From: a virus
Lineage: Duplodnaviria > Heunggongvirae > Uroviricota > Caudoviricetes
Length of the DNA stretch: 43,972 bases
Strand: one strand, 5' to 3'
Virus record (IMG/VR): IMGVR_UViG_2681813201_000019
Of the stretch, positions 1,765 through 43,057 are shown one piece after another (position 1 is the stretch's first letter; each line of letters opens with the position of its first letter). The position numbers and the translations under genes are program-made. Under the pieces are notes generated by a model. That model did no database searches and was not told where the DNA came from. It was given only the letters and a program-made list of their open reading frames with translations.

Positions 1765-4320
1765 ATGAGCAATAATTTGCAGGACATCCTCGCTGCCGCA
1801 TCGGGGTATCAGTCCGTGACTTCAGAGCCAGCGCTCAATCTTAAAAGACCTAAAACGCTTGATGATTATCCTGTGATACCACCTGCATCAAAAAAAGTAT
1901 CTGTTATTTCAAGTGACCTGACACTCCATATCGGTTTTGATACCGAATATGTTTTCAATCCTGAAACACAACAGAATGATATTCTGTCATATCAGAGTTA
2001 TGTTGTCTTACCCGATAATACAGGTATATCGAACATTATCTATCCACCTGACTCACAGAAAAAATCCCGGCTGTCTTTTAAGAACTTTCTCTGTCAAACG
2101 ATTACACCGCTTCTTGAAACGGGTGTGATTACAAAATGGCCCGGTATTATTAATATATATGCGCATTTCATTCGTGCGGATATCACCTCCTTTGCCAATT
2201 TCTGGTCAGACTACAAAATTCTTCTGAAAGGAATACGCGGTACTGTCAGCAGCTTCAAAAATCGTTACGGTATCGATTTTGATGAACAGCAGGAACGTCG
2301 CGTAAAGACTGAACAGATAATGTTTGACAAACGAACTTCCCCTCCGCGTTGCAGTAACGTAGCTTTCATCGATACACTGCTTATCACTCCCGGGGGTATG
2401 GGTCTGGCTGAATGTGGTGAATTACTGGGTCTTCCCAAACTGACCATTCCTGCACCTTATTCCATAACCAATATGCGTGAATATCTTCTGGGCGACAGAG
2501 CAGGGTTTGAAGCCTATGCTCTGCGGGATGCCGAGATTGCGGTTCGTTATGCTTTACAGGTTCGCAATTTTTGCGCCCGGGAGCTGATGATTGATCGTGT
2601 CCCCGCCACCATCGGGGCGATGGCAGTTTCACGGTTCACCAAAACACTTAAAGAAAACAATATGTCTCCTGAAGTCTGCCTTGGGACACACATTAAAACC
2701 CGTGAACTCTGGCTCACGGAGAAACAGGCATTCCGGACGATTAAAAACCCCGCCAGTGTTCCTTCAAGAGAGCTGTTTGAAACGTTCCCGATCAACTGTT
2801 ACCACGGCGGACGCAATGAGTGTTTTATGATGGGGGTTACACCGTCTGATCACTGGTATGACTACGATCTGGCTGGAGCGTATACCACCGGGCTATTAGA
2901 TATCCTCATACCCGATTACGGAAACATCCGCCTCAGTAAAAATCCGGACGATTACTGTGGGCATGTAATGGGATTTGCGTTTGTCACATTTCAGTTCCCG
3001 GAATCAGTTCCCTATCCCAGCCTGCCGGTTCGGACCGATCAATATGGGTTATTCTTTCCATTAAGTGGCGAATCATGGGCAACGGCACCTGAAATCGAAC
3101 TTGCTCTGTCGCTCGGGGCAGAGATGACGATCCATAATGGGATCATCGTCCCCTGGATCTGTGACACCTCCCCACATAACAGCGAATCAACATCGGTGTT
3201 TCTTCCCTTTGTTCAACAGGTCCGTGAGAACCGTAATCGCCATATTAAAGGTTCTCTGGAGGAGAAATTCTGGAAAGAAATTGGCAACTCGCTTTATGGC
3301 AAACTTGCTCAGGGCCTTCGCGCCAAAACCGCCTTTGATACTGCCCGTGGATTAAACAGATCCCTCCCACCATCATCGGTTACTCAGCCATTCTTTGCTG
3401 CGCATGTGACGGGATTTATCCGCGCCGTTGTCGGGGAACTCATGAATGCTTTGCCTTCTGATTCATCGGTTGTCAGCGTCACAACCGATGGCTTTTTGAC
3501 AAATTGCCCACTTAACAAGATAAACATGAGCGGTCCACTGTCTTCCCGCTTCCAGTCGCTGTGCGATATTGTTGATCCGGGTTCATCAATGTTGACATGT
3601 AAGCATGAGGTCAGCCAGCTTATCGCCATGAAAACCCGGGGGCAGTTAACCTATAGAGCTATTCAGGGAAAACCTGTTGTTCATGCCAGGGCTGGCGTCA
3701 AACCTCCTGCCGATATTCCACGCAGTGACTATAACGACTATATGGTAGATCTTTACCTTAATCGTTTACCCGGTCAGACGTTATCCCGAAGTACGTTGAT
3801 ATCAACGCGTGAGATGTGGCTGTCGGAAAGCGATCTGGTATCCCGGGAACAGGATATCCGTCTTAATCTGGAATTCGATTTCAAACGCCAGCCCGTACAG
3901 CCCGCCATGAATGAAGGGCATTTACTGATGTCTTCCCGCCCATGGGATAATATGGAAGAGGCTCTGCAGCAACGCTCTCTTTTCGACGACTGGCGGCAAA
4001 CGCATACACTGAAGACCCTGGCTGACTGGGATGACTGGTGTGATTTTCTCTATTGCCGGACGGTGTTTTCTGATATGAAACTAAAAGTCGGAAGCAAACG
4101 TAGTGATGATATTTTAGTCAGACTATTTCTCCGGGCGCTGACTCAGTGCCAATGGGGGCTTATGCTGAAAGATAAAAAAAGTTATTCCTGTAAAGAGGTT
4201 GCTGAATGGCTGACGTCAGAAGGCTATTCAGTAACATGTCAAAAAGCACCTGCTGGATCTCCCGGGCCCGAAGGTCGCAGTAACGTATCTTCCCCAGACG
4301 AGGTTCAATGTATTGCGTGA
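1765..4320 (+). CDS. Family-B DNA polymerase, piPolB-like (primer-independent PolB of pipolins)
   Basis: 851 aa; Exo I-like HIGFDTEY, motif A-like YDYDLAGAY, motif B KEIGNSLYGKLAQ (Kx3NSxYG), motif C-like VSVTTDGF, and KTRG in AMKTRGQ; lies beside a recombinase and a UDG-like gene at a tRNA-Leu att site. Confidence 0.8.
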   Translation: MSNNLQDILAAASGYQSVTSEPALNLKRPKTLDDYPVIPPASKKVSVISSDLTLHIGFDTEYVFNPETQQNDILSYQSYVVLPDNTGISNIIYPPDSQKKSRLSFKNFLCQTITPLLETGVITKWPGIINIYAHFIRADITSFANFWSDYKILLKGIRGTVSSFKNRYGIDFDEQQERRVKTEQIMFDKRTSPPRCSNVAFIDTLLITPGGMGLAECGELLGLPKLTIPAPYSITNMREYLLGDRAGFEAYALRDAEIAVRYALQVRNFCARELMIDRVPATIGAMAVSRFTKTLKENNMSPEVCLGTHIKTRELWLTEKQAFRTIKNPASVPSRELFETFPINCYHGGRNECFMMGVTPSDHWYDYDLAGAYTTGLLDILIPDYGNIRLSKNPDDYCGHVMGFAFVTFQFPESVPYPSLPVRTDQYGLFFPLSGESWATAPEIELALSLGAEMTIHNGIIVPWICDTSPHNSESTSVFLPFVQQVRENRNRHIKGSLEEKFWKEIGNSLYGKLAQGLRAKTAFDTARGLNRSLPPSSVTQPFFAAHVTGFIRAVVGELMNALPSDSSVVSVTTDGFLTNCPLNKINMSGPLSSRFQSLCDIVDPGSSMLTCKHEVSQLIAMKTRGQLTYRAIQGKPVVHARAGVKPPADIPRSDYNDYMVDLYLNRLPGQTLSRSTLISTREMWLSESDLVSREQDIRLNLEFDFKRQPVQPAMNEGHLLMSSRPWDNMEEALQQRSLFDDWRQTHTLKTLADWDDWCDFLYCRTVFSDMKLKVGSKRSDDILVRLFLRALTQCQWGLMLKDKKSYSCKEVAEWLTSEGYSVTCQKAPAGSPGPEGRSNVSSPDEVQCIA

Positions 4321-4738
4321 AACGCTGAACATCCTTATCCCAGGACTTTTTATGGCGTTTGATGAACGGAACATAGGTCTGGTGAAAAAACTCACTAAGT
4401 GTTGGCATCGCACGATAATTATCGCGTTCTGCTTTAGGGTCATTTCCCAGTGCAATCGCCTCCTTGTGACGACGAGCTATCTGACGGGCTGTCCCCACAT
4501 CGATTTCAGGGAATCTGCCAATACTGATACTTTTTTTGGTACCGTGGAATGTGTAGCGCAGGAGGAAACGTTTGTTACCCGTTCGACCTGAGAGACATTT
4601 GAGGCCTATGACCTCGGTATCTGATACCTCAAGCTCTGTAGATCGGGTATCTGTGTTTGCCGGAAGGGCTTTGATGGATGAATTGGTGAATCGGAAGGAT
4701 TTTTGCATATTTATCCTCATGTATCTGATTGATATCAT
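4160..4738 (-). pseudogene. P4-type integrase N-terminal fragment (arm-binding and N-terminal domains only, catalytic domain missing)
   Basis: N-terminal region resembles the P4-like integrase arm-binding/SAM-like domain (LLRYTFHGTKKSISIGRFPEIDVGTARQIARRHKEAIALGNDP... FTQYIEPRLGKIRYCDLRAREIQQVLFDML); sequence then degenerates and the ORF runs into the convergent 3' end of the polymerase gene; no R..HxxR..Y domain. Confidence 0.55.
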
Positions 4739-4788: not shown

Positions 4789-5529
4789 ATGGAAAAGCTA
4801 TTAGACGCGTACAAACGGATATTGCAGGAAGTTAACGCCCAGTCATTTAACCTGAATGAGGATAAATACTCAGGCGTCTTTTTACCCGTGCCGTTTGAAG
4901 AATACTGGCATTCACCGATAAAAATCATGCTGGTTGGACGTGAAACCGCAGGCTGGAATACGCTGAATGGTAAGAATACGATATCACGGGTGTTGGGACT
5001 TATACCTGACGTCACCATCGGGCAAGTGGTTGAAGAAGCTGTAGATCGTTACAGGAAACATCTTCCGGTACAAAATTATGGCACCGCCAACCTCAAATCA
5101 CGTAGCCGCTTCACGCAATATCATTTCAGGCTGGCCCGGGAGCTTAATATTCTTCCCCAGGCAATCGTGTATGCCAATCTACTGGCGTGGGATTACGACG
5201 GACTGACCCCTCTCAATCGCCCTCAAAATGAAGTGCAGGAAGTCATATTAGCCTCGCTGAAGCTACTGGCGGTACAAATTAAACACCTTGAGCCTGATTT
5301 CATCATCTTTGCATCTGGAGCCCGGAGAACAGACTACATCATAAAACAGGTGCTTACTGAGCTAGGCGGCTATGAGACTTCTTCAGTCATTCCGGGGAAG
5401 CTGTGGGAGTTCAAAACAGGTAATACAATCTGTTTCAGAATTGCCCATCCAAGGGCTATGCGCGGACACCAGAAGTACAGAGATGAGGTGATTGCACGAA
5501 TTAAGCAACTTTGTACTCAGGGTGGCTAG
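4789..5529 (+). CDS. Uracil-DNA-glycosylase-like protein (family-4-like)
   Basis: N-terminal IMLVGRETAGW resembles the UDG GE(A/G)PG motif region and C-terminal FRIAHPRAMRGH resembles the HPS motif region; assignment by motif resemblance only. Confidence 0.45.
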   Translation: MEKLLDAYKRILQEVNAQSFNLNEDKYSGVFLPVPFEEYWHSPIKIMLVGRETAGWNTLNGKNTISRVLGLIPDVTIGQVVEEAVDRYRKHLPVQNYGTANLKSRSRFTQYHFRLARELNILPQAIVYANLLAWDYDGLTPLNRPQNEVQEVILASLKLLAVQIKHLEPDFIIFASGARRTDYIIKQVLTELGGYETSSVIPGKLWEFKTGNTICFRIAHPRAMRGHQKYRDEVIARIKQLCTQGG

Positions 5530-5702: not shown

Positions 5703-5826
5703 ACAAAAAAACCACCCGGAGGTGGTTTCACGACACTGCTTATTGCTTTGATTTTATTCTTATCTTTCCCATGGTACCCGGAGCGGGACTTGAACCCGCA
5801 CAGCGCGAACGCCGAGGGATTTTAAA
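5703..5826. repeat. att direct repeat, left copy (3' 55 nt of leuZ plus 69 bp of downstream terminator region; not a complete tRNA)
   Basis: 124 bp identical, apart from 1 mismatch, to 42902..43025; identity ends exactly at the tRNA anticodon-loop position. Confidence 0.85.
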
Positions 5827-5932: not shown

Positions 5933-6934
5933 TTACCCTCTATTGTCAAAAGGGTTCAATTCAACAGCAGCCTCTAAATGACCTGGAGCAAAATGCGCAT
6001 AACGCATAGTCATTTTTATATCGCTATGCCCCAGTATTTTTTGCAACACAAGAATATTTCCGCCCCGCATCATAAAATGACTGGCAAACGTGTGACGTAG
6101 CACATGAGTTAATTGCCCATCAGGAAGCTCGATCTTCGCTCTCTTAATTGCAGCGTCAAAAGCCTCATAACATGGTGAAAATAGCGCTCCTCGTTTTTTG
6201 GGAAGCATAGCCTGCAATTGAGGTGAAATCGGTACAGTGCGGTTCTTCTTTCCTTTAGTTTTAACAAATGTGATTCGACCGGGCAGTACTTGAGATTGCT
6301 TTAATCCTTCTGCTTCACTCCACCGAGCACCAGTCGCAAGCCCAATACGGACAACAACCCCCAAATCTTTATTCCGTGACTCATCACACGCAATCAGAAG
6401 GCGTTCAATCTCATCTACATACAGAAACGCCAGTTCCTTTTCTTCCTCACGAAACTTGCGAATACCAGTCAGGGGGTTTTCACCAGACCACTCCCCAAGG
6501 CGCTTCAGTTCGGCAAAAACAGCATGTAGATATGACTGCTCGCGATTAACGGTTGCTTCACTAAGTTTTTTCTTCCCCTTGGGATTCCATTCTCCTGATA
6601 GCCTTCTTTCCCGATAAGTGGCAAACATATTTTTGTCAAACTGAGAAGCAAATGGATCTCCCAGCCTGGAACAAATCGCCTCAAGTTTGACTTTGCGCTC
6701 TGCACCAGAGGACAAGGTTTTACCGTACATCTCAAACCAACGAGCAATCAACTCAGAAAGACGAGGACCAGAACCATCTTGAAACTCGTCTCCAACTCTA
6801 CTATTCATTAAACGGCGCTCATAAGAGAGCGCCTCACTTTTTGTCGCAAACTGTTTACGAATGCGTTTTCCCGATGCCCCGTAGGGATAACATTCGCAAA
6901 GCCATTTACCTGATGGAATCTTACGAACCGACAT
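5933..6934 (-). CDS. int: Phage integrase (P2 Int family tyrosine recombinase)
   Basis: 333 aa; TGARWSEAEGLK, ITFVKTKGKKNRTVPIS and THVLRHTFASHFMMRGGNILVLQKILGHSDIKMTMRYAHF closely resemble P2 Int; lies about 100 bp from the att repeat. Confidence 0.9.
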   Translation of the reverse strand: MSVRKIPSGKWLCECYPYGASGKRIRKQFATKSEALSYERRLMNSRVGDEFQDGSGPRLSELIARWFEMYGKTLSSGAERKVKLEAICSRLGDPFASQFDKNMFATYRERRLSGEWNPKGKKKLSEATVNREQSYLHAVFAELKRLGEWSGENPLTGIRKFREEEKELAFLYVDEIERLLIACDESRNKDLGVVVRIGLATGARWSEAEGLKQSQVLPGRITFVKTKGKKNRTVPISPQLQAMLPKKRGALFSPCYEAFDAAIKRAKIELPDGQLTHVLRHTFASHFMMRGGNILVLQKILGHSDIKMTMRYAHFAPGHLEAAVELNPFDNRG

Positions 6935-6939
6935 TTTAG

Positions 6940-7287
6940 TTACTTATCACATAAATCAAATGCAGCCTTAGTGACATCCCCTAGGCTCTTTTTTAACCCT
7001 GGGGCGGCATCATTATCTAGCCAAAATGGATTATTGTTATCTAACGGTAACGCACCAAATGTTTTACCTTTTATTCGAGCCAAACCTGTAAGTGCATATA
7101 ACTTATTATCGTCAAAATTCATCACATAAGGATTACCATCAAGACACTGTAATTGAACCTCATCAGTATTAAATGGCCATACCCCATTGAAACTCTCACG
7201 TTCAATAGTTTTAAAAGGCATTGCGACGGCGGAAAAAGAAAACATAGATAAAAAAGTAACTAATAGTTGAACCTTTTTTACTTTCAT
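6940..7287 (-). CDS. Small secreted protein of unknown function (predicted signal peptide)
   Basis: N-terminus MKVKKVQLLVTFLSMFSFSAVA is signal-peptide-like; sits in the int to repressor cargo position. Confidence 0.5.
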   Translation of the reverse strand: MKVKKVQLLVTFLSMFSFSAVAMPFKTIERESFNGVWPFNTDEVQLQCLDGNPYVMNFDDNKLYALTGLARIKGKTFGALPLDNNNPFWLDNDAAPGLKKSLGDVTKAAFDLCDK

Positions 7288-7316
7288 ATCATTACCTCAA
7301 TTTAGCTCAAGTAAGA

Positions 7317-7967
7317 TTACAAATTAAAAAACGCCCTAGAAATGACACCGCCTACCAAAACCCCTACGCAGATAAAGAATATTATTTCTTTTGGATAAAG
7401 TCGGATTAATTCTGAAGCACGAAGTCGGACTTCTGGTAAGGTCGAACTCTCTGTGTGGCTTGATGCCGATTGTTGCTCTAACCACGACAATGCAGACTGT
7501 AACTGAGAACGAGTAAGATCGTTTAAACGTCCTGTACCGAAATTGATATGGCAATACCGCAGAAGTTTTTGTCGAAGTCCACAGTCTTCACTGTTACGTA
7601 GTAATAAACTTACAAGAGCCTTACAGGCATCATGATCTTTACATCGCTCAAGCATTGCATGCAGAAAACTCTCCGCTGTTTTATATTGATTTACTGTCAT
7701 ATCATCAATACCAGCTACACCAATCTCCGCATGTACTTTTTGCCAAATAATAAACGCTTCAGTATTGCTAGCTTCTGCAATAGCAGCAACCAAGCTATTC
7801 AGCTCCTTACGCTGAGCCTTAAGCAAAGGGCGATCGTCATCATCATTATTCGAAGGGATTGCGATATTGACGGTATGAGAACCATCATATCGCTCTATCT
7901 GAATATTCTTTTCGTGAAAATCACGCCCAGCAACGCGATTGTTTGAACCGTTTGAGTTGACGGCCAT
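7317..7967 (-). CDS. Hypothetical membrane-anchored protein (216 aa)
   Basis: C-terminal hydrophobic segment IIFFICVGVLVGGVI; N-terminal motif NNRVAGRDF resembles the C-terminal tail of the adjacent repressor. Confidence 0.45.
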   Translation of the reverse strand: MAVNSNGSNNRVAGRDFHEKNIQIERYDGSHTVNIAIPSNNDDDDRPLLKAQRKELNSLVAAIAEASNTEAFIIWQKVHAEIGVAGIDDMTVNQYKTAESFLHAMLERCKDHDACKALVSLLLRNSEDCGLRQKLLRYCHINFGTGRLNDLTRSQLQSALSWLEQQSASSHTESSTLPEVRLRASELIRLYPKEIIFFICVGVLVGGVISRAFFNL

Positions 7968-7982
7968 GTCACCTCCCTACTA

Positions 7983-8387
7983 TCACCTACCCTTAGTTTC
8001 GTTATAGTCACGACCAGCGATACGGTTATTACCACCAGAAATATTTAACTCACGTCCTGATAGCTGAGTTTCCTTTTCACTGATCGCACCTTTTAAAGCC
8101 CCAATCACCGCGTTTTTCACATCTAACGAAGCTGCTCGAAAGCGAGTAATCAACTCCTGCTCATCATCGTTATAAGTTTCAGGTGAGTGAATTCCCAACA
8201 CAACATACTGAACATCAAGGCCAAAACGAGACAGCGCTGCCAAATACGCAGCATCAGGAAAGCTATCTCCTTTCTCATATCTAAGCTGAGTTAGCTTTTT
8301 GACTCCACCAATGTCGCTCATGGCAACTTGACTAAGTCCCAATCTTTCCCTTTCCTCACGCAACCGCTGACCAATATCATTTTTCAT
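7983..8387 (-). CDS. Immunity repressor, XRE-family HTH (C/CI-like)
   Basis: N-terminal HTH (QRLREERERLGLSQVAMSDIGGVKKLTQLRYEKGDSFP); divergent from the early operon, the usual P2/186 immunity layout. Confidence 0.75.
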   Translation of the reverse strand: MKNDIGQRLREERERLGLSQVAMSDIGGVKKLTQLRYEKGDSFPDAAYLAALSRFGLDVQYVVLGIHSPETYNDDEQELITRFRAASLDVKNAVIGALKGAISEKETQLSGRELNISGGNNRIAGRDYNETKGR

Positions 8388-8462
8388 ACAAAAACCTTGA
8401 CAGGTATCTTTTTTGATACCAAAATGATTTCACGAGCTATTAGATGATCACAATATACCACT
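8388..8462. promoter_or_regulatory. Divergent early promoter/operator region between the repressor and the cox-like gene
   Basis: TTGACA -35-like hexamer followed by the palindrome GGTATC-tttttt-GATACC, plus a second TGATCA palindrome; position matches the Pe/Pc switch region of P2-like phages. Confidence 0.5.
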
Positions 8463-8669
8463 ATGAAACAAGTTCTTCACGATACCAGATCACGCATTCC
8501 GCGTAACACCGCCACAGGTCCAAGACTGGCACTTCGGCTGTCCCTCGAGGAGCGAGCCGTCATTGATGAAATGGCAGCTAAAGAACAACGCTCATCCTCT
8601 AACATGGCGCGCATGATCTTCCTTCGCGGCCTAGAGCTAACCCAGAAAGAACAAAACAAATCTTCCTGA
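8463..8669 (+). CDS. Small early regulatory protein (possible ribbon-helix-helix)
   Basis: 68 aa; first gene of the rightward early operon; RLALRLSLEERAVIDEMAAKE is RHH-like. Confidence 0.4.
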   Translation: MKQVLHDTRSRIPRNTATGPRLALRLSLEERAVIDEMAAKEQRSSSNMARMIFLRGLELTQKEQNKSS

Positions 8670-8685: not shown

Positions 8686-8889
8686 ATGTCAGGTATAACC
8701 ATCAATATCAATGTGAATGCCCCCTATGTATCCCTGCAGAAATATGCAGAGATAACAGGTATCCCTCTTAATACATGCAAAAAGATGTTGGCTGACGGTC
8801 GAATTATTATCCGCCCCAAACGCGCCAAAATGGAAAAGCCTGAAGTAAACCTTGTGGCGATGTTAAAAGACGCTTTGGCTAACAGCTAA
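8686..8889 (+). CDS. Cox/excisionase-like HTH protein
   Basis: 67 aa; YVSLQKYAEITGIPLNTCKKMLADGRIII resembles the Cox/AlpA HTH; position matches cox/apl. Confidence 0.5.
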   Translation: MSGITININVNAPYVSLQKYAEITGIPLNTCKKMLADGRIIIRPKRAKMEKPEVNLVAMLKDALANS

Positions 8890-42901: not shown

Positions 42902-43025
42902 ACAAAAAAACCACCCGAAGGTGGTTTCACGACACTGCTTATTGCTTTGATTTTATTCTTATCTTTCCCATGGTACCCGGAGCGGGACTTGAACCCGCAC
43001 AGCGCGAACGCCGAGGGATTTTAAA
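42902..43025. repeat. att direct repeat, right copy (overlaps the functional leuZ 3' half and its terminator)
   Basis: Identical to 5703..5826 except for one base in the terminator loop. Confidence 0.85.
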
Positions 43026-43057
43026 TCCCTTGTGTCTACCGATTCCACCATCCGGGC
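42971..43057 (-). tRNA. leuZ: tRNA-Leu (anticodon UAA-type)
   Basis: Minus-strand 87-nt sequence gcccggatggtggaatcggtagacacaagggatttaaaatccctcggcgttcgcgctgtgcgggttcaagtcccgctccgggtacca; last gene of the pgsA-glyW-cysT-leuZ cluster. Confidence 0.95.

Follow-up and report, generated by a model that had tools for sequence, protein, structure and literature searches.

A terminal motif shared by the immunity repressor of a P2-like prophage and a membrane-anchored neighbour: a candidate pairing tag

Introduction

Adjacent genes that carry the same short motif, one at the C-terminus of its product and the other at the N-terminus, form the layout that was used to discover bacterial amyloid-signalling motifs. 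Here we describe this layout in IMG/VR record IMGVR_UViG_2681813201_000019, a tailed-phage (Caudoviricetes) sequence of 43,972 nucleotides (hereafter the window). The motif lies in the C-terminal tail of the C-type immunity repressor of a P2-like prophage and at the N-terminus of the 216 amino acid (aa) membrane-anchored protein encoded by the next gene (hereafter the partner). P2-like prophages are common, and to our knowledge it is largely unknown how they sense when to leave their host.

The closest described systems are the amyloid-signalling pairs, among them fungal HET-S/NWD2, bacterial Bell/NLR pairs with BASS motifs, and Bab/Agp (BASS11), which has the same gene layout within an E. coli prophage and for which amyloid signalling has been proven experimentally (bioRxiv 10.1101/2024.11.07.622273). 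In those pairs, as at this locus, a motif of about 17-26 residues is found at a C-terminus and at the N-terminus encoded by the adjacent gene; the terminal extensions are modelled with very low confidence, which is read as disorder, and are rich in G, N, Q or D with alternating hydrophobic residues; and the motif classes diversify yet stay matched within a pair. Paired terminal motifs in adjacent genes are known; what is new here is that the immunity repressor of a phage shares them with a membrane protein. Full-text searches of the literature on repressors, prophages and amyloid signalling gave no prior description of an arrangement of repressor tail and partner N-terminus, and the amyloid-signalling papers that were consulted contain no mention of helix-turn-helix (HTH) proteins or repressors.

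The shared motif

The repressor gene (8387..7983, minus strand; 134 aa, ending in LNISGGNNRIAGRDYNETKGR) is the first gene of a leftward operon that ends in the integrase gene, int, and is followed by the partner gene (7967..7317, minus strand), whose product starts with MAVNSNGSNNRVAGRDFHEKN. BLASTP aligned repressor residues 114-130 (LNISGGNNRIAGRDYNE; 7998..8048, minus strand), after which comes a short basic cap, TKGR, with partner residues 3-19 (VNSNGSNNRVAGRDFHE; 7911..7961, minus strand). In this alignment, the sole significant segment between the two proteins, 10 of the 17 positions were identical and 15 were positive (E=2e-5). A regular-expression search in six frames of the window found the motif at these two sites only. 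The original prediction, made from the letters of the DNA, had singled out this likeness and had argued from differing codon usage that it was not a recent duplication; both points held. Codon usage predicts 4.3 matching codons at the 10 identical residues, and 4 were observed; over 29 pairs it predicts 130.1 at 284 identical residues, and 125 were observed. Because codon identity was no higher than codon usage predicts, the likeness appears to be kept by selection at the protein level and not by homogenisation of the DNA. By the same comparison gene conversion and recent duplication were ruled out.

The two genes are separated at the junction (7968..7985, minus strand) by TGA TAG TAG GGAGGTGAC and then ATG, that is, by three in-frame stops and a Shine-Dalgarno sequence (GGAGG). 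A fusion protein made by read-through or frameshift was considered and ruled out, because these stops and the GGAGG ribosome-binding site stand between the genes. No natural HTH-partner fusion of the Rosetta-stone type was seen among the matches listed (240 of 426) in word-index searches with both proteins, nor in the 132 clusters returned by the exhaustive partner-profile search described below.

The repressor consists of an XRE helix-turn-helix (residues 1-64), a helical hairpin (74-109), and the tail (105-134). In the AlphaFold 2 (AF2) model, the predicted local distance difference test score (pLDDT) was >90 at residues 11-60 and <50 at 105-134, so low that we read the tail as probably disordered. 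Its Pfam matches (HTH_31, HTH_19, and HTH_3) were all under their cutoffs, whereas the PHROG matches (8/4/3) were to 'transcriptional repressor'. As expected of a P2-type C immunity repressor, it is a small HTH protein that heads the leftward int operon and diverges from a Cox-type early operon; the same switch layout was found in enterobacterial relatives. It has no LexA-type (S24) self-cleavage domain.

Co-variation of tail and partner

Both copies of the motif are conserved within their own families. Partner residues S5, G7, N10, R11, G14, D16, and E19 were invariant among 26 homologues of 58-85% identity, and the repressor tail followed the consensus (I/V)N(V/I)(S/T)G.G.R.AGRD(Y/F).E.KK in homologues from Serratia, Yersinia, Klebsiella, Salmonella, Erwinia, Dickeya, Hafnia, Pectobacterium, and Enterobacter. 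More distant repressors had other G-rich tails, e.g. FHG.VGQ...G...N...KKK.

The two ends were compared across 160 loci around repressor homologues (80 contigs, one genome per species, and 80 IMG/VR viral contigs). When a repressor had a G-rich tail, the downstream gene usually started with a motif of the same kind, and the classes changed together: tail and downstream N-terminus were of the same class in about 45 independent loci, in Entero-, Pseudomonas-, Aeromonas-, Burkholderia-, and Comamonas-type prophages. The tail is TVDYGNAQIGQASAGDIVN and the downstream N-terminus TVSFGGAQIDQAAAGDINN in Jeongeupia (locus L015), GSGSVQIGHIGGDY and GDGGIQVGSVGGDL in Comamonas (L078), QIFNGDISGQFAGNQIIN and QEFNGTAQGQFSSRDIIN in Pectobacterium (L011), and, in three viral contigs, QVFHGAVSGGVAARDIINN and QEFQGNVDGGVAGRDIVNQ (L146), AENIYNF and ANNIYNI (L118), and MEIKGDNNVQI and MKITGNGNTQV (L153). 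In most of 34 pairs the motif ended 0-10 residues from the repressor C-terminus, and it started at partner residue 2-17. The basic cap that follows the tail motif had a mean charge of +2.1 in these 34 pairs; the partner flank was merely marginally acidic (-0.4), and we make no claim that the flanks are complementary in charge.

Partners were chosen by rule and not by eye, as the first downstream open reading frame (ORF) of at least 100 aa on the same strand. Likeness was scored as the summed local alignment of the tail (last 40 aa) with the N-terminus (first 60 aa), and cognate pairs were compared with permuted pairs, a statistic that leaves shared ancestry in. For 73 loci with repressors <90% identical, the cognate sum was 2636 against 1693+-75, and for 32 loci with repressors <60% identical it was 989 against 686+-40; in each set 0 of 100,000 permutations reached the cognate sum. 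With only the module loci included, these being defined from non-cognate hits, z was 9.8 (45 loci), 8.9 (35 loci), and 5.2 (16 loci). Independent drift after an old duplication would make cognate pairs no more alike than non-cognate ones, and for that reason the alignments indicate that tail and partner N-terminus are being kept alike. The suggestion that the motif ties the repressor to a membrane-anchored protein, also part of the original prediction, is strengthened by this co-variation and by the conservation in both families.

That the likeness has no function at all, having arisen by chance, through gene conversion or recent duplication, or as what remains of a gene that was split, would fit the shortness of the motif and the fact that the two genes are neighbours sharing one reading frame. 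It would leave unexplained a pairwise E-value of 2e-5, a motif kept in both families at identities as low as about 60%, the outcome of the permutations, codon identity at expectation, the three in-frame stops, and the lack of a fused protein among the matches listed; we regard it as very unlikely indeed. Chance similarity on its own was ruled out by the pairwise E-value, the permutations, and the restriction of the motif to two sites in the window.

Tail and partner also appear to come and go together, which we counted in favour of pairing. Downstream of the tail-less repressor P0224, from a P2-like prophage, the genes were unrelated and shared no motif, and chromosomal Pseudomonas homologues of the repressor had no such partner downstream. 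The motif is shared by dozens of related repressors, so that the absence which would have counted against the original prediction was not observed; it is missing from tail-less P2-like relatives such as P0224.

Like-with-like pairing is the simplest mechanism, because the copies appear to be selected to stay alike rather than to be complementary. We put the probability that the shared tag mediates a direct interaction between repressor and partner at about 0.55. The original prediction had also allowed for a processing or degradation signal. In such a case both copies would be read by a host factor (a protease, a chaperone, or targeting machinery) as a common degron or processing site, for instance an A-G site of the LexA type. 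Most classes do share a core of small residue-G-(R)-D/N-hydrophobic, motif class broadly tracks host taxonomy, and RVAGRD recalls what we take to be the LexA cleavage region, RVAAGEP. Pectobacterium, however, holds two classes, each matched to its own partner (AGRD in P0158; GQFAGNQI in P0170 and L011), and several variants occur in Gilliamella and in Pseudomonas. One conserved factor would not demand matched diversification; a single host factor is therefore quite unlikely, and direct pairing is favoured because of these two matched classes in Pectobacterium.

The partner protein

The partner matched phrog_5825 over its full length (E=4e-103), and its homologues carry precomputed matches to Pfam PF27202. 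Residues 37-166 (7470..7859, minus strand) form a helical, cytoplasmic domain homologous to the N-terminal domain of Flk (NCBIfam PRK10715, E=8.6e-16); the match scored 58.1 bits over residues 37-166 only, against a curated cutoff of 353, so that the protein falls outside the PRK10715 equivalog. The N-terminus that carries the motif was modelled by AF2 with very low confidence (residues 1-41; pLDDT <50 at 1-28) and is read as probably disordered, and the helical domain (46-172) had a pLDDT of about 88. A C-terminal transmembrane (TM) anchor, expected from the start, was supported by the hydrophobic stretch EIIFFICVGVLVGGVISRAFFNL at residues 194-216 (7320..7388, minus strand) and by an AF2 helix at 192-215, and all partner homologues end in a hydrophobic segment. 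The gene had initially been taken for cargo, a description that did not survive: the gene is conserved and accompanies repressors of this type as their partner.

An exhaustive partner-profile search of 1.84 billion representatives returned only 132 clusters (P0241-P0372; 50% identity), Flk included. The true Flk proteins in this set (the E. coli type being P0354) are 320-430 aa long, start with MQP.SGP, and have no G-rich motif; nearly all the other members begin with a G-rich motif of some class. It is possible that Flk is a domesticated relative of the partner proteins of phages. Weak PHROG matches to 'anti-repressor Ant' were obtained with the first half of the helical domain. In addition, the C-terminus of P0351, a 270-aa regulator of the Rha family (Pfam Phage_pRha, E=6e-26), contains the first half of the Flk-like domain (QRKRISTAVYNL...IWQMLHAKFGVNSVKELTASQYQPVIDWL), a resemblance that appears to link the domain of the partner to phage regulatory proteins.

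Partner domains differ among the loci, and the tag and the membrane location persist: all but one of the partners examined are membrane proteins with a cytoplasmic tag. Among those without a match to the Flk-like profile, several are small proteins with two TM segments (L004, L118, L013, L059, L065, L151, and L153), the one at L126 joins a zinc ribbon to a TM segment, and those at L045 and L122 have another cytoplasmic domain and several TM segments. A bitopic type, likewise without a profile match, was found at L015 (4402-5322), L009 (4426-5415), L010 (4423-5400), L050 (4411-5193), L136 (4508-5533), and L148 (4426-5370). Here the tag is followed by a helical region, a long coiled coil, a single TM segment, and a Cys-containing periplasmic segment with the conserved pattern C.F.GK.Y.(V)GSI..N....(I/V)(E/Q)CV; this layout looks like that of a transmembrane sensor. 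A related protein, P0335, weakly matched DUF1496. Some partners, at L050 and L148, have two or three repeats of the tag. In Comamonas, the core is GSVQIGHIGG in the tail and GGIQVGSVGG in the partner at L078 (3992-4906), and GSVQVGYAGG and GNLQVGIAHG at L074 (3950-4965), that is, G-phi-Q-phi-G. Where P0224 replaces the tailed repressor (L162, 3501-4632), this 119-aa protein is followed by a 117-aa protein with CxxC pairs, a 140-aa tail-anchored coiled-coil protein, and int; the partner slot here has a different occupant, again membrane-anchored.

Small membrane proteins encoded next to an HTH gene raise the question of toxin-antitoxin or abortive-infection systems. The partner would then be a latent membrane-damaging effector that the tail inactivates or triggers, and loss or rearrangement of the repressor would kill or lyse the cell. 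The gene order, an HTH gene and then a small membrane-protein gene that often overlaps it by 4 bp or follows after a very short gap, is what such a system would have; several partners are small two-TM proteins; and amyloid-signalling systems that have been proven act through a death domain targeted to the membrane. Searches for toxin or defence families offered little to match: none was found for the 216-aa protein in Pfam, NCBIfam, or PADLOC, and no PADLOC model matched it or the 115-aa protein of the same operon. The other partners gave weak coiled-coil matches to LmuB or JetC only, with the exception of the zinc-ribbon partner at L126, which matched the candidate model PDC-S64 (E=8.5e-05, residues 12-55). 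In most partners the cytoplasmic part is a large, conserved helical domain akin to Flk and to the C-termini of Rha proteins, and not a pore-former. The gene is intact in about 500 complete E. coli genomes, which is compatible with such a system and no evidence for it. Overall, we consider an effector of this kind unlikely.

A model of repressor capture at the membrane

In the model to which we commit, the repressor tail and the cytoplasmic N-terminus of the partner would form parallel beta strands stacked on each other, in an assembly that may be amyloid-like. Through this pairing the repressor would be tethered to, or captured at, the inner membrane, and the partner would be a membrane-bound regulator of repressor availability, either an anti-repressor or a sensor. 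Clustering of the partner would allow its N-terminal tags to recruit repressor tails, the operators would lose repressor, and Cox and lytic growth would follow. What we infer in this model is that the two ends bind directly, that they do so in a beta or amyloid geometry, and in which direction regulation runs. A bolder form of it is a prion-like switch by amyloid templating. Partner proteins that cluster, possibly on an envelope or periplasmic cue, would nucleate the tags and would convert and sequester the repressor tails, with the result that repressor inactivation would be all-or-none and specific to the immunity class in prophages without a LexA-type cleavage domain. This form is possible, in our estimation, but doubtful.

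Several points weigh against direct pairing or against parts of the model. The permutation statistics retain shared ancestry, as noted. Within one class (Pseudomonas, Gilliamella), non-cognate pairs scored like cognate pairs; the matching is at the level of the class, and specificity of individual pairs inside one motif class, which was considered, is unsupported. Six or seven tailed repressors had no detectable partner within 4 kb; at L014, L019, L026, L027, L037, and L158, where the tails are G-rich and KKK-capped, no ORF within 4 kb had a matching N-terminus. Such tails may have a function of their own, or the partner may lie elsewhere. One partner, at L078, has no predicted membrane segment. 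As for amyloid geometry, ten tails and N-termini gave no match to the amyloid-motif Pfam families RHIM, Ses_B/PP, and HET-s at E up to 10, and an amyloid core would not usually be as short and as highly charged as the enterobacterial motif (NNR-AGRD-Y/F-E). The polarity is also unlike that of amyloid signalling, in which Bell, HeLo, or Bab has the C-terminal copy: here the DNA-binding repressor has the C-terminal copy and the small membrane protein the N-terminal one. Finally, the direction of regulation is a guess, and the partner could be an anti-repressor, a co-repressor, or a latent membrane effector.

The repressors without a detectable partner came mostly from Lysobacter, Stenotrophomonas, and relatives.

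The main rival to direct pairing is mimicry of the tail at a site on the repressor core. The copies would then not bind each other; both would bind the same pocket, and the partner N-terminus would imitate the tail in order to compete with it or to tether the repressor; in a variant, the tail might mediate oligomerisation or autoinhibition of the repressor through the core. Mimicry, too, predicts selection to stay alike. The repressor core is the sole protein part common to all modules, partner domains being variable, and the conservation of the tail in a few repressors without a detectable partner suggests that it may have its own function. On the other hand, mimicry needs a third co-varying surface, and AF2 docked neither the tail on the repressor core nor the partner N-terminus on its own helical domain (pLDDT <50). 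Mimicry is a serious possibility, though we think it fairly unlikely. Direct pairing is the reading we retain in what follows.

The prophage and its lysogenic operon

The prophage, of about 37 kb, is bounded within the window by a 107-bp exact direct repeat (5720-5826 and 42919-43025) that overlaps the 3' part of a tRNA-Leu(taa) gene (42971-43057, minus strand). The repeats are the att sites of a prophage integrated at the leuZ-cysT-glyW tRNA cluster. Escherichia phage 520873 is 98% identical to this region of the window, and, of 5,426 complete genomes of E. coli, 521 contain the region, in most cases at >=99% identity. In the reference sequence of phage 520873 (NC_049344 / CP025923, 2459-3065), the 216-aa gene is unannotated and was recovered by tblastn in three pieces; either the gene is frameshifted there or the sequence contains errors.

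Four minus-strand genes lie in a row, encoding the XRE repressor, the 216-aa partner, a DUF2511 protein, and the integrase. They are separated by 15, 29, and 5 nt, and between 8387 and 5933 the minus strand has no terminator-like site. The tyrosine integrase gene (5933..6934, minus strand; Pfam Int_N and Phage_integrase) is the last of this leftward, lysogenic operon. On the other side of the repressor gene, a divergent control region (8388..8462) separates it from the early operon and contains a promoter-like site on the plus strand (8397-8425, TTGACA-17-CAAAAT). A gene for an Arc-like ribbon-helix-helix protein (8463-8669, plus strand; phrog_3431, E=1e-28) lies between this early promoter and a Cox-like gene (8686-8889, plus strand; PHROG match). 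The C and int genes of P2 itself are co-transcribed, and the gene order here is that of a P2-type switch in which the repressor heads the lysogenic operon. The Arc-like gene is conserved together with cox in enterobacterial relatives; we know of no Arc-like gene at this position, between early promoter and cox, in P2 itself.

The DUF2511/YebY-like gene (6940..7287, minus strand) encodes the 115-aa protein that had been called secreted, and its signal-peptide-like N-terminus and family agree with that description: it matched Pfam DUF2511 (PF10709) at 28.4 bits, above the gathering cutoff of 21, as well as phrog_2950 and the PDB structure of YebY (7n0j, E=0.0027). It does not form one module with the repressor and the 216-aa protein, since tblastn found no DUF2511 homologue in any of the 45 related loci tested. 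The DUF2511 protein is variable cargo outside the module, whereas the 216-aa gene belongs to the immunity module.

Just outside the prophage are an ORF of 192 aa (4160-4738, minus strand), which presumably resembles the N-terminal part of a P4-type integrase, and one of 246 aa (4789-5529, plus strand) without a match in Pfam, NCBIfam, or PADLOC. The two may be the remnant of another element at the same tRNA site.

Significance and comparison with known systems

If the model is correct, coupling of a repressor to the membrane by a matched, diversifying tag is a new input route into the lysogeny switch. It would also explain why there are many tag classes, because prophages residing in one cell would be insulated from each other if their classes differed. 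If, further, the tag works by like-with-like beta stacking, then amyloid-type signalling extends from cell-death effectors to transcriptional control, and the tag is a compact, swappable protein-protein address.

Measured against amyloid-signalling pairs, the locus has the motif at a C-terminus and at the adjacent N-terminus, and it has G/N/Q-rich terminal extensions that are read as disordered. It does not have the N-terminal copy on an NLR/STAND protein or large sensor and the C-terminal copy on a death domain, and its motif matched none of the described families RHIM, PP/Ses_B, and HET-s in Pfam. The G-phi-Q-phi-G core at L078 and L074 resembles the RHIM/PP/BASS3 signature, although neither Pfam RHIM nor PP was matched.

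Other comparisons concern the partner or the operon. Flk (Fluke/RflH), a regulator of flagellar type III secretion in Salmonella and E. coli, has a homologous cytoplasmic helical domain and the same topology, being a tail-anchored cytoplasmic protein (PMC13344023); it differs in its length of 320-430 aa, in its Pro-rich MQP.SGP start without a G-rich motif, and in being chromosomal and unpaired with a repressor. The similarity of the partner to Rha/Ant-type regulators covers about 60 residues and is weak. In Vibrio phage K139, the genes cI-orf2-glo-int encode, in the same order and from the lysogenic promoter, a repressor, an unknown protein, a periplasmic protein (Glo, annotated as a periplasmic exclusion protein), and an integrase. 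There, however, cI is 215 aa long and orf2 encodes a BRCT-domain protein; the operon layout is alike, but the ends of the cI and orf2 products share no motif, and we rejected the pair as an instance of the same device. ImmR-ImmA of ICEBs1 and Gram-positive phages likewise places an XRE repressor beside the protein that controls it, but ImmA is a soluble metalloprotease, and the partner has no protease motif.

The arrangement is also like that of anti-sigma pairs of the RseA-sigmaE type, in which a membrane protein carries a cytoplasmic N-terminal binding element and is co-transcribed with its DNA-binding target. The full bitopic layout with a periplasmic domain is matched by the partners at L015, L009, L010, L050, L136, and L148. 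The two systems have no kinship in sequence or fold, and a folded anti-sigma domain there contrasts with a shared linear motif here. The target, moreover, is a repressor in this case, so that its capture would switch genes on.

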